Of a stretch of 64,000 bases of DNA, positions 44,631-61,690 are shown piece after piece. The notes under the pieces were generated by a model, which worked only from the letters and a program-made list of their open reading frames with translations, did not search any database and had not been told where the DNA came from. Made by a program: the position numbers and the translations under genes. Origin of the DNA: Candidatus Bathyarchaeia archaeon (GTDB lineage Archaea; Thermoproteota; Bathyarchaeia; Bathyarchaeales; Bathycorpusculaceae); the NCBI GenBank assembly GCA_049521795.1, contig JBEKOM010000004.1, forward strand, positions 64,001 through 128,000, given 5' to 3'. Numbering within the stretch: the stretch's first letter is position 1; each line of letters opens with the position of its first letter.

Positions 44631-44732
44631 CAACAACCTCCCCCTTTTTTATTACCAACACAAAGCGCGCAAAGCTTCTTAAATCAAACCAAACAAACGA
44701 ATGAAAGAATGTGCTAAGCAAGAGACAGAGAT

Positions 44733-45367
44733 GTGCTCAAATTGAAAGCAAAGTCAGCCACAGAGAAATCTGAAAAAGAGGTCCTTTTTTTCCTAGAGCA
44801 ATACTTTGGCGCAAAAGACATCGAAATAAACCCAAAAGTAGGAGACAAGAAAGCTGACTTCAAGGTCAAAAGCATTGACGCATACATCGAAGTTCATGCA
44901 CTTAAAGACATCGCGAGCGACCAAATGGATATTCTGTCACGAGAAAAGAACATCACTCATGTGAAATTGAAGAATGATGGACAAAAGAAGATTCTAGACA
45001 GAATAGCAAACAAGCTGCTTCATGAGTGCGCTCAGCTTCCTGAGGGAAAAAAAATCTAATCGTAACGAAGACTGAGGGCCGCTTCCTTTGGCCAGAAGAC
45101 GTCACTGACACTATTATTGGAGAACCTCATTTGCTTATCAACAAAGAGAACATGCAAACAAGTGTCGGACGTGGAACTACTGCTTTCAGGACTGATGAAG
45201 AACTTCAAGAAGTGTTGCGGAAGATTTCCGCTGTTCTTGCATACGAAGCGATTTGTCAGCATGGCAAATTGTTGGGAATCTTGGGAAATAACAAGAACAA
45301 TGCTGAAGTTCCTTTTGATGACGAAACCCTTGCAATTTTCAAGAACTTCCTGTGCGATAAATGCTGA
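44733..45367 (+). pseudogene. Frameshifted gene, PD-(D/E)xK-like protein
   Basis: KKADF...YIEVH; the -1 frame is open after the A8 run (45047-45054) through ORF 45131-45367. Confidence 0.6.
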
Positions 45368-45411
45368 AGAGAGAAAGCTTCATCATACAATTACAGCGCT
45401 CCAGCAATATA

Positions 45412-45454
45412 TTGGCTCGTGAGCCGTTCGGCTCACTCGCACGTTCCAGACGAT
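45412..45454. repeat. Palindromic REP-like repeat, copy 1
   Basis: 42 of 43 bases match 46511-46553; contains hairpin GTGAGCC-GTTC-GGCTCAC. Confidence 0.9.
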
Positions 45455-45525
45455 ACGTCACAAACAGCCGAGCGCGCGCTAGAAAAAACTCTTTTATAAT
45501 GAGATACCACTTTAGTCCATGGAAG

Positions 45526-45960
45526 TTGTCCACCGAGAAGGGTAATCCTCTATTCGGAGCATGGAGGCTGAAATCGCTTGAAACAAAGGCATCTGACGGA
45601 TCTGTCTCCTATCCGTGGGGGAAAGAAACTTTTGGCTACGTCGTCATCAGCCCAGAAGGCTACTTTTGCGTCGCAATAATGAGCGCTAATCGCAGAAGAT
45701 TCTCCTCACAAGATATGAAGGGAGGTAGCGCGGAAGAAAGAGCGAACGCTGCAGATTCATACATATCGTACTCCGGACCGTGTGAAATCGAGAAAGACAA
45801 GTTTCGAGTAAAGGTAGAAGTCAGCCTGTTCCCCAATTGGGTAGGCGGAATCCAAGAACGCAACTACAAGATCGAGGGAAAAACGCTCTCTGTATCGACT
45901 ACTCCAACTCTTGTAAACGGAAAAGAACAGGTAGGCTACTTGATTTTCGAACGCGTCTGA
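45526..45960 (+). CDS. Lipocalin-like domain protein
   Basis: GAWRL, YISYSG, VSLFPNWVG..Q.R; TTG start after TATA CTTTTATAA. Confidence 0.85.
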   Translation: MSTEKGNPLFGAWRLKSLETKASDGSVSYPWGKETFGYVVISPEGYFCVAIMSANRRRFSSQDMKGGSAEERANAADSYISYSGPCEIEKDKFRVKVEVSLFPNWVGGIQERNYKIEGKTLSVSTTPTLVNGKEQVGYLIFERV

Positions 45961-46091
45961 AACTGATCGCGCGCGCAAGATCAAGCCGAAGTTTTGAAGC
46001 CCCAAGATCCAAAACCTGTAAGCCGAGCCTCTTCTAGACTTCGAAAATTATTAAAGCACTATTACGCATATCATATCTTCTGGGAACATAA

Positions 46092-46184
46092 ATGCCGAAA
46101 AAAGACAAACCGTTAACTAAGAAAGAGCGAGACGAGAAAAGGAAGAAACATAAGGAAAAGCAAAGCAAAACACAGGCTTCTTAA
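46092..46184 (+). CDS. 30-aa basic micro-protein MPKKDKPLTKKERDEKRKKHKEKQSKTQAS
   Basis: TTATTAAA upstream, hairpin plus T-run downstream, paralog at 56140-56232. Confidence 0.7.
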   Translation: MPKKDKPLTKKERDEKRKKHKEKQSKTQAS

Positions 46185-46510
46185 GCCCCAAGAAAGAGCT
46201 TTGCAAAACTCTTTTTCTCTTTTTTCCATAAAGTTGGCTTCTTTAATGAAATGAAAGAAAGACGCGTCAGCTTTGGATATTATTGGCTTCCTCCATTAAT
46301 GCGAAAGAAATATGTTTTAGTTTGTTTATTTATCGTTAATTTGTAGCTGAGATTCATGCCGAGTGTAATGAAACGTAAACAAAAGAATACTCAAATCGCA
46401 CAACAGAAAAAGAAAGAACGAGATAAAGAAGCGAAAAAGAAACAGTTGAGACAGCAACTTCCTGCCAAGGGCAAGAAACGTTAAAGCCACTAAAGGAGCG
46501 CGCGCTCATC

Positions 46511-46553
46511 TTGGATCGTGAGCCGTTCGGCTCACTCGCACGTTCCAGACGAT
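46511..46553. repeat. Palindromic REP-like repeat, copy 2
   Basis: Matches 45412-45454. Confidence 0.9.
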
Positions 46554-47072
46554 GAGTCAAAGCCAAACCAACCGCACAATAAGCATTTCCGCCTGTCGCG
46601 CTCGCATCACGCTCGCGCTCCCACCCACAAAAACTCAAAACAATAACTAGCAGACGCTTATCAGGTAAGGATAAGACTTTGCCCTCAGACTGTGCAGTTT
46701 TCTCGTCCCCCCTGTTTTTTTCAGTAACGTTTTTGGTAATGTTGTGTGGTAACAAGTCTTGAAGAAGCGGACAGGCGTGGGGAACAAGACTTCAGCTCTA
46801 CACCGTAACGAACCAGCACTACTATCCTAATAGCGTTTTTTTCCTAAGCATTCCATTCTAGATCTCTTCATGGTTTTCTTGGCTGTACTCTCTATTGTCC
46901 GCTTCCACCCTGACGCTAAGGGGTCCGATTCTTGCAAGTGGCGGTAGGATATGAGACAGCAATTGCTCTGCACTTAGTGGGCGAAGTGTACCATTCAGAC
47001 TGATCTGCGTCCAATCAGTCTTTTCTTTGCGATATTTCTGTGTCCAGCCGTGTTTGGTCGTGCGCGCGTGCT

Positions 47073-47444
47073 ATGGTTCAGATTCCGAGAATGAGACATG
47101 GAAGCAAACAGACAATTGAAACATTGATTAATGAAGAGGCTTACTTGTTTGCGAAGTTTCTGAGATGTGAACGAGAAACATGGGTTCCAAGAATAGTGAG
47201 CCTTCAAGGAAACATGGCTACTATCAGCACAAACCTCGGAACGTTGACAGGCACTGTTACCAGCATAAACAGCACGGTCGCTACGATCCAAACAAGCCTC
47301 GGAACTCTTGAAGTCACTGATCAAGGAGTCAAAAGCTCGTCGGACACAACAGGAAACTACTCCTTAGCCGCATCAGCCCTTTCAATCATCAGCATAATAA
47401 TTCTGCTTGCCGTCGCAATTCAAGTGTTCAGAAAACATAAGTAA
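47073..47444 (+). pseudogene. Chimeric fragment: Cas1-like C-terminus fused to a surface-protein membrane anchor
   Basis: VQIPR..G.KQTIETLINEEA.LFAKFLR.E..TW.PRI followed by ATI.T.LGT repeats and a TM helix. Confidence 0.5.
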
Positions 47445-47669
47445 ACCCAAAATTACCTAGTTTTCTTCTATCGTTCTTTCTTCTCCACAATCATGCGCAT
47501 GCGCGCGAGCCCAATCCCATGACTAATGGATTTGACTTTTGCAGATTTGATAGAAGTGTGTCGATACGACAGTGCGAAAACAGAGAGGACTGAGTTAAAG
47601 TGGTTCTCGAGCATCTATGTTTCTTGTTCTCTCCAAACGCCCGCGCCCACATTTCAGGTTGTCTGGTTT

Positions 47670-48524
47670 CTATGTCTTGCCTTTTGCAACGAAGATTGCA
47701 AGATGTGCAAGACGATGACGCTTGACCTTGCGGAAGTAACGGGATAACAAAGATTCAGCAAATGCGTAGTCAAGTTTGGTCTTATCCTCTTCCAAGACTT
47801 CGTGTTCCACTTTCTCAACAAATTCCCCCATCGTTAAGGGGTAATTGTCCTTGTTCGGATGAGAATAAGGAACGATGAACGCGAGACTTCCGTCCTTCTT
47901 CAAAACACGGTGTAACTCTTTCAGGGCGCGGTGGACATTTTCGGGTTCGCCATGCACTCTCACGGCATCAACAAAGTTATCCTTTAGGGATATGTTTTCA
48001 ACAGGGGTATCAAGAACAATGAGGTTTGCGCATTCGATGCTCAGCTTCACGGACTTGGGCTTGACCAAGTAGATTTTTCCATCCTCAACCACGTTGCCTA
48101 AGGATGATATCATCCAATCATAGAAGACTTTAGGTGCAACCACCAAGATTGTGTCGCCTCTGCCAACTTGCGAATCGAGCAATCGTTGCAGTTTTCGAAT
48201 AGCACTCTTCTCAGGAGGAAGTTTCGACAAATACTGCATGTACTTGACATGAATAGTTTTGACTGCTTCCTTCAGCTCTTGACCCAGTTGATTCGTACCT
48301 TTCTTGCCGAGCCTGTACACCTTCCTTTCAGGCCCAAGGGCGCTTTTCATTCGGGTAGCCTCCAGATAGCCCTCTGTCTCCATCTCAGTGAGCACTCTAT
48401 AGAGGTAGCTGATATTCGGCCTGAAGTCTCTCGCTGCCAATTGTTTTTGGACCTCATAGCCGTGCATTTCTGCGGTGCCAAGCATCTCTACAATCGTCTT
48501 CTTCAGATAGTCTTTGTGCATCAA
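47670..48524 (-). CDS. PadR-type wHTH fused to methyltransferase-like domain
   Basis: MHGYEV, YLYRVL..ME.EG, GPERKVYRL; C-terminal ALKELHRVLKKDG. Confidence 0.8.
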   Translation of the reverse strand: MMHKDYLKKTIVEMLGTAEMHGYEVQKQLAARDFRPNISYLYRVLTEMETEGYLEATRMKSALGPERKVYRLGKKGTNQLGQELKEAVKTIHVKYMQYLSKLPPEKSAIRKLQRLLDSQVGRGDTILVVAPKVFYDWMISSLGNVVEDGKIYLVKPKSVKLSIECANLIVLDTPVENISLKDNFVDAVRVHGEPENVHRALKELHRVLKKDGSLAFIVPYSHPNKDNYPLTMGEFVEKVEHEVLEEDKTKLDYAFAESLLSRYFRKVKRHRLAHLAIFVAKGKT

Positions 48525-48785
48525 ACAAACCAGCTATTCGAAAATCAGTACTATAGTGACATCATCTTAGGCATTTATAGGTTCCTAAGCCCCTCATGTT
48601 TCAAGCCGGAACACAAAACAGAATAACGTGAAAAAATGAGAAAAACGAAATCATTATTGCCGATAATCTCAGGTATTCATTTGCCATCCATATTCTTAGC
48701 TGCACCTAGCTTTGCCTGCAACACAACGGGCTTAAGTGGTGCGTTCGCGTGTGCCTCGCAATCATAGCACGGGGGAGAAAAGCCT

Positions 48786-49361
48786 GTGACACAGCCTCAA
48801 AGCACAAGGGCTTCAACCAGCAAAGTTGGCGGGATCATGGGACCGAGCTCCATTCTGACTTTGGCTGTCCCCGTGGTCGCACTGATCGTGGCGCTGTTGA
48901 GCAGAAGCCTTCTTCTCCTGACTTATGTTCACGTACTCACCGGCGGAACTTGGACTGGCATAGACCTGTTTATGGGACTGGTCATGAGCAGAGTGCTGGG
49001 CAGTCTCTCCACTCAAAGCCGCGTTGAGGTCATAAAAAAACTCGTGCCGATCATGTTGTTCTTCATGCCTGCGCTGGCTTCGGTAGCCATAACTGCCGGC
49101 GTTTACCTAGCAATCAGTCTGGGTTGGAGTTTCTTCTCCACTCCAATAATTGCGGCATTTATCATCGTGATCATTCTATCGGTCCAAGGCTTTGGTCTGA
49201 TACTGCCAAACGAGGTTCGCGTCTTTCTCGAGCTCAGGAAGCCAAACCCAGACACAGAGAAGATTGTGAAACTTGGCATGAGAAACTTCTACTTCGCTGG
49301 CAGCCAGACGGTATTCCAGATCGCAATCATATTTGTGATGGCCTATATGGGCACCATATGA
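48786..49361 (+). CDS. Multi-pass membrane protein
   Basis: About five TM helices, YVHVLTGGTWTGIDLFMG. Confidence 0.8.
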   Translation: MTQPQSTRASTSKVGGIMGPSSILTLAVPVVALIVALLSRSLLLLTYVHVLTGGTWTGIDLFMGLVMSRVLGSLSTQSRVEVIKKLVPIMLFFMPALASVAITAGVYLAISLGWSFFSTPIIAAFIIVIILSVQGFGLILPNEVRVFLELRKPNPDTEKIVKLGMRNFYFAGSQTVFQIAIIFVMAYMGTI

Positions 49362-49488
49362 TGAAAAAAACGTTTGGACCTGTACCCGTTTGGTCTTAAG
49401 AGTAAAGTCTTGTCCCAAACCCAAACGACTAAGCGCGTGCTACTGAACGACCGTCAATAATACTCTTAGAAAAAGACGCGCTAGAAAA

Positions 49489-49974
49489 TTATGTAGCTTT
49501 GCCTTCTTTACAATAGTAGCTCATTGGTTTACCTTTCATTAGATTGAAGTCCTTGAAGACTTGGCATCCGCTGCAAATGCACATCTTGTTGAAATCAAGG
49601 TCTTTACAAACTGCAACGCCGTTAGCGCAGTATGGTCCAGGCATATCTTCCGCTTTAGGCATCATCAAAGCAATCTGTTCCTTTGGCGTGTTCCGCATCA
49701 TTTCATCGCTCATGTTCTTCATCTGTTCCCTGGACATGCTCCTCATCGTTTCAGGACTCATGTTTTTCATCATTTCCAAGTTCTGCATCATTCCAGGGGT
49801 CATGATCTTCGATATTTCAGGGCTCGGGTTCTTCATCATCTCATCCTTCGCTATTATTTTAGGTTTGGCACACGCACTAATAGCCTGGACTGGACACATT
49901 GCGCACTTGCATTTCATTATCACATCATAAGTCAATAGAACCTTAGGTCCTGCCTTATGCCCAAAAAGATTCAA
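49489..49974 (-). CDS. Cys-rich DUF2769-like protein with Met-rich insert
   Basis: CKCAMCP...C, YC..G..C, CICSGC.V, YYC..G. Confidence 0.75.
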   Translation of the reverse strand: MNLFGHKAGPKVLLTYDVIMKCKCAMCPVQAISACAKPKIIAKDEMMKNPSPEISKIMTPGMMQNLEMMKNMSPETMRSMSREQMKNMSDEMMRNTPKEQIALMMPKAEDMPGPYCANGVAVCKDLDFNKMCICSGCQVFKDFNLMKGKPMSYYCKEGKAT

Positions 49975-50434
49975 AAAAATCCACCTCCAACCTAATCGCC
50001 TTAGAACAAGATGCTAGATTAAGCTTTGCTCTCATATTAACCATCGCAAACTAACCGATACGCGCACTTCCTTCTTCAGGGTATGGTTTGCAGGAGTGTG
50101 CCATTTGAAGGGGAAGTAGAACATCAGATTTATCAGTGGTACTCAAAAGACATCAAGGTTAAGCACGCGGGGTATCTATCCGTGTCTGTTTTTTGCGTTT
50201 GTCCGTGTGTGTTTGTGTGTGCGAGTGTTTGTAGAAAGAGGGCTAGTAGGAGAGAGAGAAAGATAAGACTTTACCCCCAAAACCAAAGGTATGCGGCGAA
50301 AAGTGTTTTTTCGGTTAATGGTTTGAACACGCAACCTCTGTTCGTTAACGATTACGAGGGTGTTCTTTCTGTTAAAAAAATCTTCAAACCTTAAATACAA
50401 AATAGGAAATACTGGTCATCTGAGAAGATTTGGG

Positions 50435-50809
50435 ATGTCACAAAAGAGGTATTGCCAATATTGCGGAGTAGAAATATCCCCAACGACCACACAATGCCCT
50501 TCATGCGGTGCGGTACAACAGGCCCCTGCTCAATCACAACAGCAGCCTTACGTAGCGCTTCAACCTCAACCGCCGCCTCCGCCGGTAGCAGCTAACAAAT
50601 CAACAGGAAATATTCTGGCGGCGGCAAGCATCATCCTTGGGATTGTGGGCATATTCGTCGCCGGGGTCATACTCGGAATAGCCGCGATAATCGTTGGCGC
50701 CGCTGCAATATCGAAAAAGGCAAAAGTCGGCGGTGCAGTTGGAATAATACTGGGCTTTATTGCGTTTGTCGCTACGCTGTTGCTGATATTAGGAGTAATC
50801 ACCGTATAG
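50435..50809 (+). CDS. Zinc-ribbon membrane protein
   Basis: YCQYCG..CPSCG, Pro/Gln linker, TM helices. Confidence 0.8.
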   Translation: MSQKRYCQYCGVEISPTTTQCPSCGAVQQAPAQSQQQPYVALQPQPPPPPVAANKSTGNILAAASIILGIVGIFVAGVILGIAAIIVGAAAISKKAKVGGAVGIILGFIAFVATLLLILGVITV

Positions 50810-50908
50810 ACGGTTCTTCGCTGCCTGATTATCTACAAAAAGAACGCGCGCGAAGATTACTCTATCCTCGTAAGGAAATAGATTTAGGAAATAGTCGGTC
50901 TATCGATT

Positions 50909-51493
50909 ATGAAAACTACTGGATTTTTCTGGGGTAGATTTAATCCTCCGCATAAAGGCCACGTTGAGATTATTAGAAGAATTCTAAGACAAGTGGATGA
51001 TTTGATCGTGGTCATAGGAGCTTCCCAAAACAAGAATACTAAAAGCAATCCGTTCAGCGGGGAAGAGAGAAAGCAAATGCTGGAGGCATACTTGAAAGAA
51101 GAGGAGCTAGATGAGAAGGTAAAAATAATTCCACTTCCAGACAGTGAAGTGTCGATACAAGATGCAGTAAGATATGTTCTCAACAACACTCCGAAATTTG
51201 ATGTCTCTTTTTCTACGCATGAAATAGAAGAACAGTTGACTCCGATAAAAATAGAAGTTGAAAAAACACTAGAACAAGAATTGAATAAGAGAAAAATCAA
51301 AATTGTCAAGTTTAGAAGAATGGGAACACTATCTTCTTCGAAGATCAGAGAAGCCATAGCTTATGATAAAAAATGGGAGTATATGACAGGTAAGTCTGTG
51401 GTGAGAATAATCAAAGAACTAAATGGAATAGAAAGAATAAAGAAAGCGCATAACAGTAGTTACACACAATCGAAGAGAAAGAGAAAAGGATAA
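50909..51493 (+). CDS. Cytidylyltransferase-family protein (NMN adenylyltransferase-like)
   Basis: GRFNPPHKGH, NPFSGEER, LSSSKIR; AT-rich. Confidence 0.88.
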   Translation: MKTTGFFWGRFNPPHKGHVEIIRRILRQVDDLIVVIGASQNKNTKSNPFSGEERKQMLEAYLKEEELDEKVKIIPLPDSEVSIQDAVRYVLNNTPKFDVSFSTHEIEEQLTPIKIEVEKTLEQELNKRKIKIVKFRRMGTLSSSKIREAIAYDKKWEYMTGKSVVRIIKELNGIERIKKAHNSSYTQSKRKRKG

Positions 51494-51572
51494 GCGCGCT
51501 TCACAAACCTATGGTTATTCGTCCTCGGGCGCCTTGTATTAGGGTAAGGTTAATTTTTGCCTTCGCAGTAGT

Positions 51573-54755: not shown

Positions 54756-55079
54756 AATCGTGAAGAAGACAGCGAGAAAAGCTGCATGGCGTTTTCCGAT
54801 GAAGGATTGTTACTTTCACGGTTCGAGCCGGGTGCTCTCTCGCTCTCACACCCTCCCCCCCGGGTATCCTATATGACCCAAATATGGTTAGGTAGTCAGA
54901 AATGACTATCCGCATATGGTTCAAGAGCAGAGTTGCACTAGCTACTGCCCGAAAGAATTAAGGAACACGCTAGCGCGCTAGGAGAAGAAAAAGAAAAGAT
55001 GGCTTATTTTTGACCCATCGCCTGGGCTGTCGCAAGGTATTTATGTATGCAATTGATATCTTTTGTATACGGTGACGTG

Positions 55080-55400: not shown

Positions 55401-55909
55401 AGCTGCTTGTTTTCAATTCTACGCCATTGATCTACTTGACTAAAGTGGGTTTGAGCATGGTTCTTGAGGGTTTGAAGGGCGAAAAGGTAACGTCGCCGAA
55501 GGTCAAGAGCGAGGTTGTGGATGAAGGCAGGCGTAAAGGTGTTCCTGACGCAGTTGTCTTGGAAAAGCTGTTTGACAGCAAAGTGTTTAGGGTTGTTGAG
55601 CCTAAGGATGAGGAGTTTTTGTCGAGATTGTTGAAGACGAGGGGACTTCATGTGACTGACGCGGAGGTTTTGGCTCTTGCCCACGAGTTGAACGGTGTGG
55701 CTGTCGTGGATGATGGTGTGGCAAGGAACACCGCGAAGGTTTACGGGATAGGCTACGTGGGTACGCCATATGTTCTGGCGAGGGCTGTCTGTGAGGGATT
55801 GGTCACTAAAGAAAGAGCTAAGCAGGCTGTGAACGAAATGGTTTCTGTCGGTTGGCGATGCAGCGTTGAAAGTTATGCGAAGATTATTGAAGCTTTAGAG
55901 AAGCTTTAG
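55397..55909 (+). CDS. PIN-domain protein (DUF3368/VapC-like)
   Basis: VFNSTPLIYL, DAEVLALA, VDD..AR, GT. Confidence 0.85.
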   Translation: MKLLVFNSTPLIYLTKVGLSMVLEGLKGEKVTSPKVKSEVVDEGRRKGVPDAVVLEKLFDSKVFRVVEPKDEEFLSRLLKTRGLHVTDAEVLALAHELNGVAVVDDGVARNTAKVYGIGYVGTPYVLARAVCEGLVTKERAKQAVNEMVSVGWRCSVESYAKIIEALEKL

Positions 55910-55926
55910 AGGTTGAGCAAATTCAG

Positions 55927-56091
55927 CGCGCTGGCTTGTCCCTAAATTCGAAAAAAAAAGTAACTGAAAGCATATACATTTCGCATATACGTTTTGCATA
56001 TACAGTTGACGAGCATTGTTGAAAACGGTGAGGCTGTTCACGTCGGCTGCCGAGCTGCGTGGACTGTTCAAGTGCGCAATGAGTCGATAGA
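55927..56091. repeat. Dispersed non-coding element, copy 1
   Basis: Homologous to 59904-60066; three 13-bp GCATATAC-type units. Confidence 0.8.
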
Positions 56092-56139
56092 CTCAACAAA
56101 AAACGCACGCTGAGAATGAACAATGCCCAACGATTGAGG

Positions 56140-56232
56140 CTACTTCTTCAATCGTTTCTCTTTGTGCTTTCTTCTTTTCTCTTCTCTTTCCTTTTTAGTC
56201 ATTGGTTTCTTTTTAGTGGCTCCAGTGCTCAA
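56140..56232 (-). CDS. 30-aa basic micro-protein MSTGATKKKPMTKKEREEKRRKHKEKRLKK
   Basis: GGTGA SD before TTG; paralog of 46092-46184. Confidence 0.7.
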   Translation of the reverse strand: MSTGATKKKPMTKKEREEKRRKHKEKRLKK

Positions 56233-56267
56233 TTCAATCACCACGCTCAAATAGTCAGAATAGGGAA

Positions 56268-56420
56268 TTAAGTTTTTGCGCGCGCTCTGGCTAATGCGCG
56301 TGCTTCTTCCAGTCTCCTCACTTTTTTAACGTTGCTCCTTCCATGTTTCCATGTTCCTCGGCTTTTCATTCTTTTCAAGAATCGTTCTTTTTTCGCCTGC
56401 TTTTTCCTCGATCGGTCCAA
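56268..56420 (-). CDS. 50-aa basic micro-protein
   Basis: TTG start, MDRSRKKQAKKERFLKRMKSRGTWKHG...; TTATAA upstream at about 56465-56470. Confidence 0.5.
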   Translation of the reverse strand: MDRSRKKQAKKERFLKRMKSRGTWKHGRSNVKKVRRLEEARALARARAKT

Positions 56421-56545
56421 ACAAATCTTCCTTCCCAGAATCAGAAAGTAACAACAAACAAGGATTATAACCTTTCACCTGAATAATCCGACAGAATCCA
56501 AGACTTAATGAGAAAGAAGTTCATTAGAGTATTGAGAGTCTGTTT

Positions 56546-56659
56546 ATGAGCAGGCGTAGACGGTTTGACAGGCTTGAATGTCAGAATTGCATTTACAAGA
56601 GCAGCACGTACTGTTGGAGACAATGTCCGTACAACATCTGGAAGACGGAAGAATACTAA
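56546..56659 (+). CDS. 37-aa Cys-rich micro-protein
   Basis: MSRRRRFDRLECQNCIYKSSTYCWRQCPYNIWKTEEY. Confidence 0.5.
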   Translation: MSRRRRFDRLECQNCIYKSSTYCWRQCPYNIWKTEEY

Positions 56660-56861
56660 GTCTCGTGCGGTTGCTTCTTAGCTGCAGGAGCCTGAGTTGT
56701 GTTCTCATCGGCTACACGTTCGAATAGCCTTCCGCGCGCTGTGAGACGCCTAGAGAACTGAATGAGATTTAAGATAAAGCCGATGCCTATATCTTAGGAG
56801 CTCCATTGTACTGTTTGGATGTAAATGGTTTAATGAGGACTGAAGGAATGGGAGTGGGAAC

Positions 56862-57155
56862 ATGATTTCGTCCAAGGCGAAAAATCGAATGAAGCGTGAG
56901 CTAGCCTTAGGGAAGCCAACAATATGGGTTGGTAAGGAGGGAGCGTCGCCGCAGACGATGAATGAGATTTCTAGGCAGTTGGAGAAGAGGAAAATGGTGA
57001 AAGTCCAAATATTGAATAGCGCGCTTGTGAATGAGAGCGCCAAAGACATCGCGTCAAAAACAGCTCAGCAAACAGGATCCGTTTTAATCGATGTTCGAGG
57101 CCACACTTTCATACTGCATAAGCCTCGCAAAAAGAGAAGTGAAAAGCCTCCGTGA
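56862..57155 (+). CDS. YhbY/CRM-domain RNA-binding protein
   Basis: KPTIWVGKEG, MVKVQIL, VRGHTFIL. Confidence 0.9.
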   Translation: MISSKAKNRMKRELALGKPTIWVGKEGASPQTMNEISRQLEKRKMVKVQILNSALVNESAKDIASKTAQQTGSVLIDVRGHTFILHKPRKKRSEKPP

Positions 57156-57399
57156 GAGGACCGTTTAAAGGGTTTTGAAAGGGATTGGATTGTGATAATC
57201 TTGTTAGGGAAGGTTCAAAAACACCCACTTCGTTCATGCCTTTGACCTTGCCTTCATGAACCTGCCTCCGTCAAGAGATCCTAAAATGGCTGACGCATCC
57301 ATTGACAAAGGCGCGCGCGTCTTTCTTGATGAGCATGACCATTCTGACTGAGTGTGCTCTTTTCATCCTCTTCAACTATCGAACAGCCTAGCGCGCGCA

Positions 57400-57483
57400 C
57401 TATCTTACTCTCTTGTTTCTCCGAAGCAAGCGTTTGTTTGGGAGTTTTGGTTTCTTCACACGTTTTGCATCCGTCGCAGCCAA
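57400..57483 (-). CDS. 27-aa basic micro-protein MAATDAKRVKKPKLPNKRLLRRNKRVR
   Basis: TTTAAG upstream, GAGGGT before TTG. Confidence 0.45.
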   Translation of the reverse strand: MAATDAKRVKKPKLPNKRLLRRNKRVR

Positions 57484-57638
57484 GACTAGACCCTCAAGAC
57501 AGTTTTGACCCTCGTTTCTCTTAAAGCTACTGTACAGCGCGCTCTAATGATTGTGGAGACGACTTACAAATTTAGCGCGCTGGATCGATAGGCATGCGGA
57601 ACATGCTAGAAATCGGCTATTAACCCGAAAATCTTGCA

Positions 57639-57830
57639 TTAGGGTTTAGTGCGGGCGGCGCTTGGCTTCTTTACCCATTCTATTTTAGTAGAGTAGGCTT
57701 CACGCAATTGTGGAGAAGTAATGGGTTTCCATTCTTTGGCCACTGCAAGCATTCGACTTTTGGATTTGCTAGTCTTGTCTTTTCGTTTGGGCTTTTGTTT
57801 CCCTCTCGGTTTGTAATGTTCAGGTTTCAT
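57639..57830 (-). CDS. Small basic hypothetical protein
   Basis: GGAG before ATG; Lys/Arg-rich. Confidence 0.5.
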   Translation of the reverse strand: MKPEHYKPRGKQKPKRKDKTSKSKSRMLAVAKEWKPITSPQLREAYSTKIEWVKKPSAARTKP

Positions 57831-58290
57831 GTTCGATCTCCGCTGGTTCAAGCTTAGATATCTAACATATAGGAGTTTTGTAACCTTTTGATTTAGCGCG
57901 CTACTAACAAAGGGTTGATACTGGCTATTTCCATGACCGAAAGCAACCTGCGTGTGTCATCTATTTTTTGAGCTCTGCGACTAGCAGATGTAGATTGGTT
58001 TTCCCTGTGTTCTCGGCTTCATGTGATCGTGCCTTGAGGAAGAGCCTCTTGGCCGCTTTTGTGTCCAAAACATCTGTTTTTCCTGAGGATGTCAGTTTTA
58101 GTTTGCCACCTTAGCGCTCGAATCCGGGACAAGGGAACTGCAGGAAAATGTCCTCATGATGCTCTGTTGGTTAATCGGTTTATAAGGAAGTGTGTGCATT
58201 ATGGGGCAGTAGCGTTCTGTTGTTGACGGACGAGAAGAACACAGCAACGTTGCACGACACAATCAATGATGAAAGGGGTGATAGAAAGAA

Positions 58291-58575
58291 ATGGCTGAAG
58301 AATCTGCAATTGTTTTCATTGGAAGTAAACCACCAATGGACTATGTTCTAGCAGTTATGACAAGACTATCGGCTGGCAATGCTAAGGAAGTAGTTTTGAA
58401 GGCAAGAGGACAGGCGATCACTACGGCTGTTGATGTGGCTGAAATAACCAGAAATCGCTTCCTGAAGGACCTGAAAGTGAGCAAGATAGCTGTAGGAACA
58501 GAGGAGATGCCGGCAAGAGAAGGCGAGAACAGGTCACGGATGGTTTCAATAATAGAAATAACCCTTGCAAAATAG
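58291..58575 (+). CDS. albA: DNA/RNA-binding protein Alba
   Basis: [28 protein letters not shown]. Confidence 0.95.
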
Positions 58576-58646
58576 CAGGAAACCTTGCGAAACACGCGTG
58601 CAATTATAGTGAGAGAATGTTTAGATACGGGTAACGATGAAGAACA

Positions 58647-59897
58647 ATGAAACTTGCTGTTCTGGTCTGGGAGTATCCACCGAGGATCGTCGGTGGCTTG
58701 GGAACCTACTCGGCTGAAATAACTCGCCAGTTTGTTCTCACGGACAATGATGTTACAGTTTTCACGATGAATGATGATGCAAATGCTTTGCCGACGCGTG
58801 AGATTTGGCACGGTATCGAAATCCACAGGCCGCTGCACATTGACATTTCTGACTCGTTGCCCGATGTTGTTGCAGAAGACCTACGGAAATGGGGTAGTGG
58901 GTTACAGTGGTTTTCAAAGATCCTCGTTTATAATTATCTGAGCGCTGCAAAACTCGTGAATGAGCTGATAAGAAAAGAACGCATCAAATTCGACCTTGTC
59001 GTTGCTCATGACTGGCTTTCAGGTATAGGTGGAATGGCTGTTAAGAAAGAGGCAGGACTTCCTTTTGCGTTTCACGTTCACTCGACAGAGAAAGGGAGGA
59101 CGCTTGGAAAGGGCTCGGTTACGGTGAGCAACATTGAACTTCACGTTGCTAGAGCGGCTGACCTTATCGTGACAGTTTCTTATGCGATGAAGGATGAGCT
59201 GGTGGGCCTAGGTTGTCCAAAAGAAAAGATTCAGGTTGCTTACAACGGGGTCGACCCGAAGAAGTACGACCCCGCAACAGTGACGTCTGAGCAGATCAAG
59301 AAGGTCAGAGAATTGTATGGTATCAAAGACGATGAGTACATGATTCTTTTTATAGGTCGACTCGCCGGTATGAAAGGTGTTGATAAACTGATTATGGCTT
59401 TGCCGCATGTTTTGCAGAAGAATCCTAAGGCGAAGCTTGTTATCGTTGGTCTTGGCGACTTGCAGGAATACTTGATGAATCTGGTGAAAGCTACGAAGAT
59501 GAGTGATTTCGTGAAGTTCAGGTTCGAATTCATTCCCGAGGAAGAACGTATTCTTCATTATGCTGCATGTGACGTTGCAGTTTTCCCAAGTTTCTATGAG
59601 CCCTTCGGAATAGTCGTTCTGGAGGCAATGAGTATGGAGCGACCAGTTGTCATCGGTGCAGCCGGCATCAGCGGCATGCGAGAAATAGTCGTGTATTACG
59701 GCGAAGACCAGTGCGGTTACCACATAGATCCAAACAACCCGTCCGACATAGCTTGGGGCATAAACAGCGTCTTGGAAAACGATGAGAAGAGAAAGTGGCT
59801 GGGCAAAAACGGCAGAAAGCGGGTCTTGAACGAGTTCACGTGGGACAAGATAGCTGAAAAAACATTGGGGCTTTATGAACAGATCATCAAACGCTAA
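58647..59897 (+). CDS. GT4 glycosyltransferase (glycogen-synthase-like)
   Basis: WEYPP..VGGLG, HDW, HSTE, GR...KG, EPFGIV.LEAM. Confidence 0.93.
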   Translation: MKLAVLVWEYPPRIVGGLGTYSAEITRQFVLTDNDVTVFTMNDDANALPTREIWHGIEIHRPLHIDISDSLPDVVAEDLRKWGSGLQWFSKILVYNYLSAAKLVNELIRKERIKFDLVVAHDWLSGIGGMAVKKEAGLPFAFHVHSTEKGRTLGKGSVTVSNIELHVARAADLIVTVSYAMKDELVGLGCPKEKIQVAYNGVDPKKYDPATVTSEQIKKVRELYGIKDDEYMILFIGRLAGMKGVDKLIMALPHVLQKNPKAKLVIVGLGDLQEYLMNLVKATKMSDFVKFRFEFIPEEERILHYAACDVAVFPSFYEPFGIVVLEAMSMERPVVIGAAGISGMREIVVYYGEDQCGYHIDPNNPSDIAWGINSVLENDEKRKWLGKNGRKRVLNEFTWDKIAEKTLGLYEQIIKR

Positions 59898-59903
59898 GCT
59901 TGA

Positions 59904-60066
59904 CGCGCTGGCTCGTCGTTAAATTTGCTGATATTTGTTTTTTAAGAGCTTATACGTTTTGCTTATACACTTTGTATATACACTTAACATGCATCATTGA
60001 GAACGGTGAAGCTGCTAGGTCGAATGCGAAACCGTATGGACTGTTCAAGTGCAAACGCACGATAGA
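59904..60066. repeat. Dispersed non-coding element, copy 2
   Basis: Shares CGCGCTGGCT, 13-bp units, AACGGTGA.GCTG and TGGACTGTTCAAGTGC with copy 1. Confidence 0.8.
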
Positions 60067-60141
60067 GGGATAAGGGCAGCGCGGCGGTCCAACGTTTAGC
60101 CCGGAGTTTTTCGGTGAATTCGTGACTGTTGTTTGAAGTTT

Positions 60142-60702
60142 TTATTCGTAGAATATGAGGTCTTGTTCTTCCAAGCTGGCGTGAAGCTTGTGCACTGCGT
60201 CATAAACGTCCTGTTCTTTCTTCGCTCCGGTGCAGACAAGGTTTCCGCTTGCGAATATCAGTATGACCACTTTAGGCTCGTCCATCCTGTAGATCAGTCC
60301 TGGAAACTGCTCGGGCTCGTACATGGTTTTTACGAGCTTGCCGACTGCCTGTTCCAAGTCTACTTTTCCGCCTAGGCTTACGGAGGCAACGATGTTCTGA
60401 ATCTTCAGCTCCGGTTTGCTGATGATGATTATTCCGCTCTTTTTCAACTCTTTAACAACCGTCAATACGGCCCTGCGGGCTTCTTTTTCGGATTTTGCTC
60501 CTGTGCACACCATTTTTCCAGAGTTGAAGATCAGCGTGGCCGTCTTCGGTCTCTTAAGCCTGAACACAAGTCCAGGAAACTGTTCTGGACGATATTCTAC
60601 GCCTGGGTAACTCTTCACGATAGCGTTCAAGTCAATTCTCTGGTTTAACGTGGCAGAAGCAACGACGTTTTGAATTTTTATTATGGCTTTAGTCTTCGGC
60701 AT
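60142..60702 (-). CDS. tbp: TATA-box binding protein (paralog 2)
   Basis: IQNVVAS, Y.PEQFPGL twice, GKMVCTGAKS. Confidence 0.97.
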   Translation of the reverse strand: MPKTKAIIKIQNVVASATLNQRIDLNAIVKSYPGVEYRPEQFPGLVFRLKRPKTATLIFNSGKMVCTGAKSEKEARRAVLTVVKELKKSGIIIISKPELKIQNIVASVSLGGKVDLEQAVGKLVKTMYEPEQFPGLIYRMDEPKVVILIFASGNLVCTGAKKEQDVYDAVHKLHASLEEQDLIFYE

Positions 60703-61399
60703 TAAAAACCACTTCTTCTTTTTTAATGGTGCGCGCGCATTCGATGATGCTCAAGCTTCCGGTTCTTCCCAGTCGCAGTTGCCTTTCGCCGCTGAACCAG
60801 GTTACTTTGCCGTTTTTGATGTCAACTACGTCGCCCTTGTGCACCATGCTGATCTGTTGGTTCCATAAACTCATTTTCATCGACCCAGTTTCGTCTTCGA
60901 TAACTGCGTTTGATATAGAAGCAGTCGTTCCATATCTCGTGTAGACGATTTTAGATTCTGGAATCTCAAGCACTTCTACTTTGAGGCTGACTTTTTTCAT
61001 TCCGACTTTCAAGTCACCAATCTTCGAGGTTACACCCTCCAAATTCTTGAATGAGGAACTTCTGGCCAAAATTGCTTCCGTGATGCTTCCGAGCTGATTC
61101 TCTCCTTGCAAGATGGCAATCGATATCGGAAATTGAGCTATAACCTTCCGCGAACGCTTCGGACCTTTGCTAAAAAGAAAGATCGCTGAATTCTTCGTCC
61201 TCTTACGACACTTTATAGCCAACTGCGCACATTCTGACCCGTCGTGATTCCAAGCTTCGACAATACGAGCGAAGAATTCACTCGAATCAACCTTATGCAG
61301 CAATCCGATTCTGGCAAGGCTCTCCAGAATCCTTCCATCCTTGTACGAAGGCCTGCTGCTAAGAGGCCTGCCTCTACCTCTCCAAATCTGCTTAGCCAT
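60689..61399 (-). CDS. OB-fold ssDNA-binding (RPA/SSB-like) protein with unknown N-terminal domain
   Basis: KIGDLKVG, DETGSMKMSLWN, GDVVDI.NG, LRLGR.G. Confidence 0.82.
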   Translation of the reverse strand: MAKQIWRGRGRPLSSRPSYKDGRILESLARIGLLHKVDSSEFFARIVEAWNHDGSECAQLAIKCRKRTKNSAIFLFSKGPKRSRKVIAQFPISIAILQGENQLGSITEAILARSSSFKNLEGVTSKIGDLKVGMKKVSLKVEVLEIPESKIVYTRYGTTASISNAVIEDETGSMKMSLWNQQISMVHKGDVVDIKNGKVTWFSGERQLRLGRTGSLSIIECARTIKKEEVVFNAED

Positions 61400-61690
61400 C
61401 TAACTTGTTTCCACTCTTGTTTTTTTCACTCGACAAATCCATCGCTAAAACAATAGATCTGCAATGTGCATCTCAATACTGTCAATACCACTTATATAGC
61501 TTAGCTGCTGGGCGTAACATTTTATGGTTATCGAAGTCGCCTGAGGTACGCTCTAGCGTTTGGCGCGTTCTAGCTGAGCAGTTCGATCCTTGCGCCCATT
61601 GCTTGTCCAAGCGCGCCTTCGTGGAATTTGGCTGTGACAACGCGCGCTAGATAAATCATACAATATTATCCCCTGCAGGGGGATCGAAAG

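Follow-up and report, generated by a model that had tools for sequence, protein, structure and literature searches.

Alternating-GC runs in a hypervariable zone of a Bathyarchaeia genome: element tips and possible scars of a cut-and-paste family

Introduction

The archaeal integrons described so far, as presented in PMC9668308, have a canonical IntI integrase and attC sites. The DNA analysed here, a 64,000-nucleotide stretch of a 2.44-Mb Bathyarchaeia MAG (referred to as the window; the genome is G000), contains an integrase gene at the edge of a variable gene array in which alternating G/C runs such as GCGCGC are frequent. A sequence-only reading of the window had proposed a cassette system analogous to integrons, run by the adjacent integrase, with this motif as its crossover core or scar. 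The runs were compared with those of a sister genome (G002) and in a second pair (G001/G000).

Results and discussion

The integrase and the hypervariable zone

The integrase adjoins the RNase P RNA gene, as it does in relatives, and is followed by a zone that differs between genomes. The main features are as follows (a dot denotes no assigned strand).

43392..43698, + strand: archaeal RNase P RNA gene (Rfam RF00373, 192 bits), conserved and anchoring the variable zone on its left
43740..44630, + strand: tyrosine-recombinase (integrase) remnant (PF00589, 67.9 bits; below all NCBIfam cut-offs)
44629..61677, strand dot: hypervariable zone, with content and order varying among G000, G002 and G001; 22 runs
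45409..45460, + strand: 52-nt hairpin repeat copy 1 (GTGAGCC-GTTC-GGCTCAC), with a run 8–11 nt after it
45969..46566, + strand: mobile micro-ORF module with two Lys/Arg-rich micro-ORFs (46093–46185 and 46358–46484)
46508..46559, + strand: 52-nt hairpin repeat copy 2, its start 3 nt past the 46498 run
54976..55931, + strand: toxin-antitoxin-like module, with a 117-aa ORF (55047–55400) and a PIN-like DUF3368 ORF (55397–55909)

The catalytic tyrosine of the integrase is replaced by histidine (MVHTHI, aligned with MVYTHI in L025, L026 and L028–L030), and the copy in the sister genome has an in-frame stop. Its scores of 80 bits for XerA and 53 bits for the integron integrase model TIGR02249 lie below the respective cut-offs of 220 and 265; unlike the recombinase of the described archaeal integrons, the protein is not an IntI. 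An Rfam scan at gathering thresholds returned only the RNase P RNA and 5S rRNA and no attC-like structure. The position of the gene bordering a variable array, the cassette-like cargo (GNAT, toxin-antitoxin and small ORFs) and the presence of the motif at seams would suit an integron-analogous system, but the motif is found genome-wide and in several genera, and the genes have mixed orientation and, according to the sequence-only reading, their own promoters. The integron model is thus largely refuted and retains very little credence. The integrase plays no visible part and does not drive the motif, although the portion of the original interpretation that concerned scars and breakpoints is supported by the results below.

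Borders of blastn blocks in the zone fall at 44628, 46041/46513, 52244/54784, 54976/55931, 58643/59903 and 61677. The modules have been shuffled between species and runs mark their seams; homology to other genomes ends at the integrase stop codon. The two hairpin repeats (family D2) are 92% identical and multi-copy in other genera. As had been noticed, runs mark a start or an end of both duplicated non-coding elements of the zone. Pieces of the micro-ORF module are 86–98% identical in other genera, again with seams at runs: the homology with another species (L034; 598 nt at 91%) has its start precisely at the 45968 run in both genomes, that with G039 and G053 stops at the run at 46498, and a 64-nt piece in G053 has a run at each homology end. 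The toxin-antitoxin module is 94% identical in G002, where it occupies a different genomic place. It has runs at both ends in both genomes; its right end is a miniature inverted-repeat element (MITE) in G000 and just AGCGCGCGC in G002. Contigs of two public runs join position 57318 to 60714 on opposite strands, which is an inversion-type joint in a relative, at or near GC runs. The 5′ edge of a supposed Cas1-like fragment had also been placed at a run, but a six-frame PF01867 search of the genome (E ≤ 1) gave four small hits, none of which is on this contig.

Distribution and form of the runs

The runs themselves were for the most part correctly located by eye: all 20 main listed positions correspond to alternating G/C runs of 6–9 nt lying within 3 nt of the coordinate given, far above chance in a shuffle comparison, and CTAGCGCGCTAG is present at 54970–54981. 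The three sites described as shorter (49433, 49477 and 59904) do alternate but are only 5 nt each, and two runs inside ORFs (57019 and 60731) had been overlooked. Overall, the original observation is partly confirmed. The runs of the zone are listed below (strand dot throughout); a further one, at 55926–55931, is the tip of a MITE described later.

44665..44670: GCGCGC, 35 nt 3′ of the integrase stop codon
45472..45479: GCGCGCGC (in GAGCGCGCGCTAG), adjoining the TATA-like box of a lipocalin-like gene on its upstream side
45968..45976: CGCGCGCGC, 8 nt past the stop of the lipocalin-like gene
46498..46505: GCGCGCGC (in GAGCGCGCGCTC), 14 nt past micro-ORF 2
47062..47068: GCGCGCG
47501..47507: GCGCGCG, 57 nt past the stop of ORF 47040–47444
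50845..50852: CGCGCGCG, flanked by a zinc-ribbon ORF and a cytidylyltransferase-like ORF
51494..51499: GCGCGC, immediately 3′ of the stop of ORF 50909–51493
52257..52262: CGCGCG, in a block shared with G002, 13 nt from the block's left border at 52244
54973..54978: run within CTAGCGCGCTAG, at the left seam of the toxin-antitoxin module (border of the G002-shared block at 54976)
56278..56285: GCGCGCGC
56733..56739: CGCGCGC
57019..57024: GCGCGC, within the YhbY-like ORF 56862–57155
57311..57319: GCGCGCGCG
57391..57398: GCGCGCGC (in CTAGCGCGCGCA)
57537..57542: run in AGCGCGCT
57575..57580: run in TAGCGCGCT
57896..57901: run in TAGCGCGCTA
60731..60738: GCGCGCGC, within an OB-fold (SSB-like) ORF
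61611..61616: GCGCGC
61641..61647: CGCGCGC, 44 nt past the stop of a conserved 547-aa gene; at the matching place in G002 a run lies ∼20 nt past the border and the intervening sequence differs

GCGCGC occurs 35 times in the window compared with 15.6 ± 3.7 in shuffled sequence (none of 100 shuffles reached 35), and 28 of the 35 fall within 44631–61690. This interval holds 22 alternating-GC runs, 19 of them non-coding, at a density of 3.1 per kb of non-coding DNA versus 1.49 genome-wide (Poisson p 0.003); the figure for window positions 1–44630 is 0.51. In run content the interval ranks in about the top 3–5% of the genome's 498 17-kb windows. The motif is not particular to an integrase-linked array: 688 runs lie in the non-coding DNA of the whole genome, and an excess is seen, patchily, in several related genera. 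Non-coding DNA, 19% of the genome, contains 976 of the 1348 GCGCGC (2.11 versus 0.19 per kb). The enrichment over coding DNA is 11-fold for GCGCGC and 27-fold for GCGCGCGC, whereas the ratio is 0.5–1.8 for the six other G+C-only hexamer palindromes and other dinucleotide repeats are enriched merely 1–6-fold. Core spacers had been said largely to lack runs; they have relatively fewer, but the interiors of conserved spacers, with 20 runs in 36.4 kb, still reach a density of ∼0.55 per kb.

The described placement after stops and before promoters holds genome-wide. In the stretches 0–60 nt past stop codons (220 runs in 85 kb) their density is 2.1 times that of the remaining non-coding DNA; the runs also show a second broad rise 50–100 nt upstream of start codons and reach their highest density in convergent spacers. 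Non-coding runs number 234, 123, 184, 93, 50 and 2 at lengths of 6, 7, 8, 9, 10 and 11 nt, respectively, with a mode at 8 nt and a sharp end at 10 nt rather than a geometric tail; lengths differ between species. An A..T flank is found at 79 of 167 (GC)4, 17 of 40 (GC)5 and 37 of 162 (GC)3 runs versus 100 of 868 (GC)2, and purine-pyrimidine alternation has zero extension past the run in 222 of 370 cases versus about 92 expected.

Breakpoints, conservation and gain

Homology and indel breakpoints are statistically tied to the runs, as the sequence-only reading had expected. Alignment borders coincide with 43 of 149 sister-genome runs (28.9%), compared with 4–10% for ten controls; among the control values are 5.6% for 3300 random 8-mers, 4.1–8.3% for eight other motifs, 9.9% for positions 5–45 nt after stops and 5.3% for positions 50–100 nt before starts. 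Other GC-rich or purine-pyrimidine 8-mers lack the association. Conversely, a G000 run is found no more than 5 nt from 22 of the 164 ends of G002/G000 alignments (18 of 110 if non-coding ends are taken alone), versus 2.7% of 5000 random non-coding positions and 2.6% of stop-codon ends, and this is unchanged with DUST off. The corresponding counts are 19 of 127 (non-coding 12 of 93) for G001/G000 and 14 of 132 non-coding ends for internal duplications. These results support the view that the motif behaves as a scar.

The runs are conserved no better than neutral spacer: eight of 20 G000 runs inside aligned spacers are identical in G002, versus 50.8% of 5495 control hexamers, and among the 38 G002 runs that fall inside alignments, point mutations have changed 22, three are pure indels and 13 persist. 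Outgroup polarization shows that runs arise de novo, either as insertions of ∼8–9 nt or where a deletion has joined its two sides. In G000, a deletion of 3.2 kb (C6:80521) carries TAGCGCGCG at its joint; its long allele is matched in seven other congeneric genomes, nearly whole in four, and the sole copy read, that of G002, has a run at neither breakpoint. A 258-nt deletion in G002 carries GCGCGCGCG at the joint, again with a run at neither breakpoint in the long-allele copy read in G001. G002 has also gained a pure +8 nt GCGCGCGC, in one step from a GC seed, that is absent from three genomes, and in G001 a 9-nt run stands in place of 3–4 nt.

Terminal repeats of a mobile-element family

The inverted repeats of a MITE superfamily, and likewise those of an IS5/IS1182-like insertion sequence of ∼1.08 kb, have GCGCGC as their terminal hexamer, and TA usually flanks it. 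Two MITE copies lie in the zone.

55925..56078, + strand: MITE copy, 3′-truncated; its left inverted repeat is AGCGCGCTGGCTTGTCCCTAAATTCG, and tandem repeats of 13 bp lie in its interior
59904..60087, + strand: the second MITE copy, which has diverged and lies between the genes for the glycosyltransferase and TBP

For the former, as many as 24 other matches occur in the genome. The latter is missing in G002 and is skipped by contigs from other samples, one variant having GCGCGCG-led filler instead. Matches to the MITE family, which has the ends AGCGCGYTGGCTTGTCC...GGACAAGGCARCGCGCT, number 23 in G000, 22 in G002, ten in G001 and six in G010. The GC stretch is part of the inverted repeat, since one MITE copy has compensating CGCTC/GAGCG ends. 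The repeat core follows AGCGCGC at 17 of 20 sites in G000 and at eight of 13 listed sites in other genera. Matches to a 23-nt repeat pattern were obtained in at least 120 metagenome stretches. Of 80 of these, 68 have a tip run of exactly 6 nt; the base before the run is A in 66 of 79, and TA stands before it in 41 of 79. In L162 and L144 such repeats enclose a 328-aa transposase (DDE_Tnp_1 and DUF772). No intact transposase was found in G000, which has a 5′-truncated relative (38% identity, E 4e-33) with ACATA-GCGCGCGC at the truncation joint; elsewhere a solo repeat remnant is found in G000 where G002 carries a MITE. The family is best read as the ∼1.08 kb insertion sequence together with several ∼160–200-nt MITE subfamilies.

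Origin of the runs

The explanation given somewhat better than an even chance is that the runs derive from this cut-and-paste family, as its tips, as solo remnants or as scars left by excision or deletion. Elements would insert mostly where selection permits, past stops, ahead of promoters and in accessory DNA. Their loss or truncation may then rejoin the two GC-rich tips, leaving [T]A-(GC)3–5-T[A]; the length spectrum is as expected from two 6-nt tips joined with a 2–6-nt overlap, and solitary runs carry the A..T flank of element tips. Breaks may also delete adjoining DNA, rearrange it or let foreign pieces be captured, which would place runs at seams between DNA of different histories, and point mutation would subsequently erode the scars. 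Being hypervariable, with a dead integrase and the RNase P RNA gene as its neighbours, the interval 44.6–61.7 kb would be seam-dense. Several observations weigh against this explanation. There are about 690 non-coding runs and about 20–25 MITE copies in G000, and the repeat core occurs in about 10–12 of 2250 run flanks, so a long turnover history must be assumed. Repeat-core matches in three run-rich genera are few (two in G046, one in G059 with one in the control, one in G036 with one in the control), and six of ten congeners are run-rich without a MITE-family match; other families with the same tips would have to exist there. TA..TA borders 16 of 167 solitary (GC)4, much rarer than in two-ended MITEs (15 of 37). 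Clean indels have a run at the joint in 14 of 35 cases and none in the other 21, and the lack of an intact transposase in G000 also counts against it. IS5-type elements of prokaryotes are not known to leave footprints. In a comparison of MITE and run-only alleles, both flanks could be placed in G000 for none of eight elements.

Alternatively, the runs could be recombination sites at which a recombinase or microhomology joining swaps DNA between any two palindromic runs, so that run-bounded modules move as units and the MITEs are merely the most successful module. This is unlikely but has points in its favour: a run is present in both genomes at some seams (the toxin-antitoxin module ends and the 45969 module start), in genomes with integrases just 53% identical; the G053 piece is run-bounded at both homology ends; the joint 57318/60714 is of inversion type; and deletions in G000 and G001/G010 share a right border at a run while their left borders differ, which implies repeated breakage there. 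At most seams, however, the run is in one genome alone (38 ends within 5 nt of a run in either genome versus four in both for G002/G000; 25 versus seven in the second pair), the long alleles read have none, runs also arise as pure insertions and no candidate recombinase was found. Functional punctuation, whether a terminator or insulator, a DNA-binding-protein site or a relief valve of Z-DNA-prone sequence separating transcription units, would account for the position bias, the palindromic form with its preferred A..T flank and the density in convergent spacers. It is nevertheless very unlikely given conservation not above neutral expectation, an alternation that mostly stops with the run and the terminator-like hairpins of the zone, which number 17 versus 18.2 in shuffles, with only two overlapping a run; selection against insertion into genes and promoters would equally give the position bias.

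Filler added by the genus's Ku/LigD end-joining machinery during double-strand break repair would explain de novo runs at deletion joints, and G000 has an operon of LigD-PrimPol, Ku and ligase/phosphoesterase, with Ku in G000 and seven of ten congeners versus one of 20 other relatives. Yet Ku was found in four of 40 other genera, with GCGCGCGC counts of 7, 6, 30 and 106, and in none of the five richest genomes (439, 389, 262, 227 and 161; completeness 91–99%). Known end-joining additions are unlike filler of near-constant length and sequence, which is what the runs would be, and this origin is accordingly very unlikely. Microsatellite-like slippage or a compositional quirk giving (GC)n in unconstrained DNA is consistent with the non-coding location and with lengths that vary between species, but hardly at all with the sharp 10-nt cut-off, the modest enrichment of other dinucleotide repeats, the specific A..T flank, the one-step 8-nt gain or a breakpoint association not common to similar 8-mers, and is the faintest of the prospects considered.

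What look like successive stages of element decay can be seen in G000: the truncated transposase joint, the solo repeat remnant and the toxin-antitoxin module end that is a MITE in one genome and a run only in the other.

Distribution of alternating GC runs

The sequence-only reading singled out GCGCGC palindromes between the gene modules of a hypervariable zone, and that observation is sound; what is present, in some Bathyarchaeia, is a GCGCGC-tipped IS5/IS1182-like element, its MITE derivatives and an unusually large number of short palindromic runs, probably scars, at seams. The window features concerned are the following.

43392-43698 (+), RNase P RNA gene
43740-44630 (+), integrase remnant
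44631-61690, hypervariable zone
45409-45460 and 46508-46559, two copies of a hairpin repeat
45969-46566, micro-ORF module
54976-55931, toxin-antitoxin module
55925-56078, MITE, 3'-truncated
59904-60087, second MITE copy

The window contains 35 GCGCGC hexamers (15.6 ± 3.7 in shuffles), 28 of which lie within 44631-61690. An alternating G/C run of 6–9 nt is present, with an offset of at most 3 nt, at each of the 20 main coordinates proposed by eye; the three sites proposed as shorter do alternate, but over just 5 nt, and runs at 57019 and 60731, both inside ORFs, were absent from that list. The zone holds 22 runs of at least 6 nt, 19 of them non-coding, and its density of 3.1 per kilobase of non-coding DNA compares with a genome average of 1.49 and with 0.51 in the 44.6 kb to its left.

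The motif had been taken as part of an integrase-linked array, a notion that did not survive, as the enrichment turned out to be genome-wide. In the source genome (2.44 Mb, 48.6% G+C, 69 contigs; identified as archaeal by the TBP, Alba and archaeal RNase P RNA genes of the window), every coding/non-coding split is based on crude ORF and codon-usage calls (2279 genes, 81% coding). The non-coding 19% of the DNA takes 976 of the 1348 copies of GCGCGC and 360 of the 417 copies of GCGCGCGC, giving non-coding densities 11-fold and 27-fold those of coding DNA; for six further G+C-only hexamer palindromes this ratio is 0.5–1.8. The 372 copies of GCGCGC in coding DNA are close to the composition expectation, and the non-coding copies are roughly 15 times the ∼66 expected by our own composition estimate. 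A prokaryote survey (PMC4060949) describes 6- or 8-nt alternating GC as generally suppressed, and the portions of the literature consulted yielded no description of such a GCGCGC motif in archaeal intergenic DNA or in Bathyarchaeia mobile elements.

GCGCGCGC is plentiful in all ten other species of the genus (29–464 copies each) and numbers 0–14 in 19 of the 20 genomes that represent other genera of this order. Among 40 further genera of the family it exceeds 50 copies in ten (maximum 439) and is at or below seven in 21, making it a patchy trait. Run density is 2.1-fold in the first 60 nt past stop codons, rises broadly 50–100 nt upstream of starts, and is highest in convergent and lowest in divergent spacers. 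Non-coding runs of 6 to 13 nt number 234, 123, 184, 93, 50, 2, 1 and 1, respectively; with its peak put at 8 nt and its stop at 10 nt, this spectrum does not fit an origin by slippage. An A..T flank encloses 79 of 167 (GC)4 tracts versus 100 of 868 (GC)2 tracts, T..A being the commonest next pair. Comparison of run surroundings revealed no common context past 1–2 nt, run-to-run distances showed no characteristic spacing, and purine-pyrimidine alternation is not continued outside the runs.

A DNA uptake sequence was considered and rejected, since the coding density only matches composition and conservation is not above neutral. A C5-cytosine methyltransferase or GCGC-type restriction system tracking the runs was likewise rejected, PF00145 being found in just the source genome, its closest congener (G002) and one other of 31 genomes. 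Separately, the C5-cytosine methyltransferase gene present in the source genome and G002 was not found in the other nine congeners searched, and the differences that destroy runs in spacers aligned between these two genomes are mostly single CpG transitions (GCGCGC to GCGTGC, GCACGC or GTGCGC).

Runs at homology breakpoints

In the main comparison, 425 kb of G002 (∼90% nucleotide identity) was aligned with the whole source genome. The 93 alignment blocks have 164 internal ends, and at 22 of these (18 of the 110 non-coding ones) the source genome carries a run no more than 5 nt away, compared with 2.7% of random non-coding positions and 2.6% of stop-codon ends by the same measure. BLAST low-complexity masking was excluded as a source of such ends, the counts being identical with DUST switched off. 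A second comparison, with 340 kb of the closed congeneric genome G001, placed 19 of 127 ends at runs, and internal duplications within the source genome placed 14 of 132 non-coding ends there.

The 149 non-coding runs of G002 are distributed over block borders (43, 28.9%), the interior of alignments (38, 25.5%, versus 47% of random 8-mers) and unaligned DNA (68). The border share is 4.1–8.3% for T6/A6, TATA-like hexamers, CTAG, GGCC/CCGG, isolated GCGC, isolated CGCG, other purine-pyrimidine 8-mers and other G+C 8-mers, 9.9% for positions 5–45 nt after stops and 5.3% for positions 50–100 nt before starts, so that gene-end position is excluded as the cause of the association. The prediction that breakpoints fall on the motif is thus upheld, because the motif and position controls (4.1–9.9%) stay far lower. 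A run is present at the joint in 14 of 35 clean indels and absent from 21.

Within the zone, the blocks common to G002 end at 44628, 46041/46513, 52244/54784, 54976/55931, 58643/59903 and 61677, and in G002 they occur in a different order and are spread over two contigs. The toxin-antitoxin module has bordering runs at its left and right ends in each of the two genomes, and pieces of the micro-ORF module are 86–98% identical in other genera, with homology stopping at runs. The two micro-ORFs (45964-46162 and 46248-46499) encode Lys/Arg-rich peptides of ∼30 and 42 residues, and their regions are 95–98% identical at the nucleotide level in two genomes of other genera (G039 and G053), far above the genomic background. 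Contigs from four public sequencing runs, which are short unitigs of mixed relatives and in which joints with sides below 30 nt were excluded as evidence, confirm the GC runs in independent samples and include MITE-skipping variants.

Conservation and polarity of the runs

In aligned spacers, eight of 20 runs of the source genome are identical in G002 versus 50.8% of control hexamers, which is no better than neutral. The 38 G002 runs inside alignments comprise 13 that are kept, 22 that are point-mutated and three that are pure indels. The run is confined to one of the two genomes at most seams, 38 ends with a run within 5 nt being counted for either genome versus four for both.

Five run-associated events were polarised using further genomes. 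In one, 3.2 kb covering three genes are missing from the source genome, with TAGCGCGCG where the ends meet; seven other genomes of the genus have matches to the long allele, four of them over almost its full length, and in the copy that was read (G002) neither breakpoint has a run. G001 and a further congener, G010, share the right border of this deletion with the source genome and have the left cut 105 nt further left, with a run likewise at the joint in G001. In a second event 258 nt of G001 are missing from G002, with GCGCGCGCG in their place. The third is a pure 8-nt GCGCGCGC in G002 that does not occur in the source genome, G001 or G010, the fourth a 9-nt run in G001 replacing 3–4 nt of three other genomes, and the fifth GCGCGCGCG plus 34 nt in G002 versus 1.5 kb in the source genome and G001. 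Judged by these alignments, the runs behave as scars would, rather than as conserved sites.

The integrase and comparison with integrons

The window integrase has a histidine at the position of the catalytic tyrosine, and copies elsewhere carry an in-frame stop (G002) or a frameshift (three others). It scores 53.4 bits against the integron integrase model TIGR02249 (cut-off 265) and 21.9 against PRK15417 (cut-off 435) and by score is neither IntI nor XerA. Among 22 loci of relatives, 12 have a member of its family adjoining the RNase P RNA gene at the 3' end, in either orientation, and homology to the window is lost exactly at the integrase stop codon in every relative examined. The integrase has no relation to the motif and is what remains, in a decaying state, of an integrative element; its position suggests that RNase P RNA is the integration target of an element family. 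A search of the window for an att repeat of the RNase P RNA 3' end returned chance 14-mers only. Members of this tyrosine-recombinase family beside RNase P RNA (window 43392-44630; loci L025–L034, L041 and L043 of relatives) share a conserved C-terminal extension of ∼45 residues. One public run has a contig in which position 43702, at the end of RNase P RNA, is joined directly to the hairpin repeat at 45415; this joint would give an integrase element of only 1.7 kb and, with just 23 nt on one side, it was not used as evidence.

The zone resembles an integron in having small accessory modules in a variable array beside a tyrosine recombinase and a short motif at module borders. However, integrons combine IntI, attI and attC (archaeal examples are described in PMC9668308), whereas here there is no IntI-type integrase, no attC was seen, the modules have no common orientation and the motif is genome-wide; the integrase, having lost its catalytic tyrosine, is predicted to be inactive. 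Integron-like shuffling linked to this integrase, with GCGCGC as the crossover core or scar, was therefore abandoned. The seams carry palindromes of 6–10 nt, not imperfect hairpins of 60–140 nt, and the ORFs of the zone lie on both strands, with TATA-like boxes (read by eye) before individual genes. An Rfam gathering scan of the window found RNase P RNA and 5S rRNA only, the presence of an attC model in Rfam not being confirmed, and the parts of the literature consulted contained no work linking integrons or attC with Bathyarchaeota. A Cas1-like fragment had also been claimed for the window, where none was found; Cas1 occurs in the source genome as short C-terminal fragments only (C10:61693-61890, C2:288413-288541 and C1:550689-550805), one of them ∼300 nt upstream of the MITE copy at C1:551116.

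The MITE family and its transposase

The duplicated non-coding element at 55925-56078 is a member of a dispersed family with 23 matches in the source genome, 22 in G002, ten in G001 and six in G010; 27 other relatives gave no match. Matches in the source genome are ∼150–190 nt long, full copies ∼185 nt and non-coding derivatives overall 160–200 nt. Full copies have the inverted ends AGCGCGYTGGCTTGTCC...GGACAAGGCARCGCGCT and internal 13-bp tandem repeats, and one copy has compensating CGCTC/GAGCG ends, which indicates that the GC stretch belongs to the inverted repeat and not to a target duplication. The repeat core GCTTGTYCCTAAATT has alternating GC just outside it at 17 of 20 sites in the source genome. 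It recurs in two other run-rich genera, at 36 sites in G039 and nine in G053 (reversed control, 0), where AGCGCGC directly precedes it in eight of 13 sites among those listed.

A 23-nt repeat pattern matched at least 120 metagenome stretches. Among the 80 loci listed, 68 have a tip run of exactly 6 nt, the base before the tip is A in 66 of 79 and TA precedes it in 41 of 79, and 41 of 47 partnered repeat copies are MITE-sized. Of 37 two-ended copies, 15 have TA..TA flanks; an unoccupied site bearing one TA was not recovered. Two of the loci, L162 and L144, contain a 1.08-kb element between MITE-type repeats, with a 328-residue ORF comprising DDE_Tnp_1 (PF01609, 75.3 bits) and DUF772 (PF05598, 42.1 bits), both above the cut-offs. 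The best NCBIfam matches of this transposase are IS1182 (142.6, cut-off 270) and IS5_4 (98, cut-off 140); since all equivalog scores are below cut-off, the element is filed as IS5/IS1182-like only. GCGCGC thus forms the tip of a superfamily comprising a transposon and MITEs, the short copies being non-coding and multi-copy and having terminal inverted repeats in common with a transposase-bearing element, as the definition of a MITE has it.

The source genome contains, at C4:135212-135739, 7 kb outside the window, a 5'-truncated relative of this transposase (38% identity over 151 residues, E = 4 × 10−33) with ACATA-GCGCGCGC at the joint where it is truncated and a decayed inverted repeat at the far end. 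No intact transposase was found there, a DDE_Tnp_1 search giving just two fragments, and TnpB gave no match above cut-off. All-against-all blastp of the source genome returned GNAT, Alba, glycosyltransferase, response-regulator, CBS and DUF4760 families, with no transposase in the four families scanned against Pfam. G039 sites at contig starts that carry a variant of the repeat proved to be MITEs or had just the 23–25-nt repeat in common, and a transposase was not found at them.

IS5/IS1182-family insertion sequences and their MITEs are the prokaryotic relatives of PIF/Harbinger-Tourist elements, and IS5-group elements make TA-containing target duplications. The present element is similar in its transposase type, its size, its terminal inverted repeats, its non-coding derivatives with the same repeats and the TA at both ends, and differs in its sub-threshold family scores. 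We know of no described IS5 element with a palindromic GCGCGC tip and ∼690 solitary tip-like scars per genome.

The 52-nt hairpin repeat of the zone has a 7-bp stem and a GTTC loop and is multi-copy in G039 and in the locus L034; neither its pattern nor that of the MITE core had any match in viral_contigs, which was searched for a viral origin.

Origin of the solitary runs

Solitary runs share the flank of the element tip, arise de novo, mark seams and decay. We infer that they are left by element loss: elements would insert at tolerated places, and excision, truncation or deletion of an element would leave two self-complementary tips to be rejoined, the chemistry of this step being conjecture. 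A tip overlap of 6, 4 or 2 nt would yield a run of 6, 8 or 10 nt, fitting the observed ceiling, and the same breaks could give rise to flanking deletions and to the capture or exchange of segments. The region from 44.6 to 61.7 kb is hypervariable, and seams accumulate there for that reason. Candidate intermediates are single cases: a solo repeat remnant in the source genome where G002 has a MITE, the right end of the toxin-antitoxin module, at which the source genome has a MITE and G002 only AGCGCGCGC, and contigs of other samples that skip the MITE at 59904, one with GCGCGCG-led filler instead. A systematic comparison of MITE-occupied with run-only or empty sites had 0 of 8 sites usable.

Several counts sit uneasily with scars of this kind. 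The source genome has ∼690 runs versus ∼20–25 MITE copies, the repeat core is found on only ∼10–12 of 2250 run flanks, the repeat core is all but lacking in three run-rich genera and the MITE family is lacking in six congeners, and TA..TA is rarer at solitary runs than at MITEs. The runs may act as recombination sites too, as suggested by the reuse of one run as a deletion border in two lineages and by seams that have runs in both genomes. Filler from Ku/LigD end-joining was also considered: the source genome has the operon, which tracks the genus, but this explanation is weakened by the occurrence of Ku in only four of 40 other genera of the family (run counts 7, 6, 30 and 106) and in none of the five richest. 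A more far-reaching proposal is that a break-and-join process, with the IS5-like transposase or another partner, writes a (GC)4 linker, the runs being both product and preferred substrate of a module shuffling by which genes, micro-ORFs and MITEs travel among peat and sediment Bathyarchaeia, both within a genus and from one genus to another. Such a linker is self-complementary, so that any two ends in either orientation could anneal and be sealed; the proposal as a whole is nevertheless considered improbable.

The closest parallel to scars left by rejoined tips is the footprint of eukaryotic cut-and-paste (Tc1/mariner) transposons, which consists of TA, a few terminal nucleotides of each end and TA. 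Solitary runs have the form [T]A-(GC)3–5-T[A], i.e. the flank plus what two tips would add, and likewise appear de novo at sites without other change; the transposase family is different, however, and footprint formation would here be read from sequence. Footprints at such density in an archaeon are, to our knowledge, undescribed, and the parts of the literature consulted contained no precedent for palindromic MITE excision footprints in archaea. REP/BIME elements and yeast mitochondrial GC clusters are also short, G+C-rich, intergenic, abundant, lineage-specific palindromes tied to rearrangement, but they are 20–60 nt long with conserved stems, whereas the runs are 6–10 nt of pure alternation.

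Where DNA was inserted, deleted or transferred as a module, the runs label the seams. The motif is a cheap marker for the edges of islands and for recent rearrangements in MAGs of Bathyarchaeia. Should the runs be transposon scars, they would constitute a readable record of DNA breakage and rejoining in an uncultured archaeal lineage and a rare prokaryotic case of abundant excision scars, and the hypervariable regions of this lineage would be shaped by IS/MITE turnover and not by an integrase. The insertion sequence, newly delimited and with known inverted repeats, is a candidate tool for genetics in these organisms, for which none exists.

Other features of the genome

The end-joining operon at C5:41155-44209 (L069, 7156-10210) is complete, encoding a LigD-type primase-polymerase, Ku and an ATP-dependent ligase fused to a 3'-phosphoesterase; Ku is present in the source genome, in seven of ten congeners and in one of 20 other relatives, in addition to the four genera mentioned. 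A 9.8-kb segment present in G001 only (C1:156489-166260, versus C9:70987 of the source genome) is flanked by the 14-nt direct repeat ATGCTTATAGCTTG, which occurs once in the source genome; this is probably an integrative element that used a conventional att site rather than a GC run. Two contig ends of the source genome (C6:1-13561 and C7:76442-90232) share ∼11 kb in four blocks (6.0, 2.4, 1.4 and 1.1 kb) in inverted order at 80–90% identity, which could be a segmental duplication or could arise from the binning of two strains or species into one genome (estimated contamination 4.4%).

Left of the RNase P RNA gene, a 452-residue gene at 41813-43171 (−) has internal repeats with a period of ∼156 nt, seen as an offset self-match ladder in blastn against G002. 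GNAT proteins form a family of eight copies in the source genome, and TBP has three paralogues, two of them within the window. A pair of Alba and GT4 glycosyltransferase genes is duplicated elsewhere in the genome (1.8 kb at 84% identity), with four copies of each gene; the Alba/GT4 and TBP paralogues lie at 58291-59897, 60142-60702 and 33037-33606 of the window and at C2:4169-5806.
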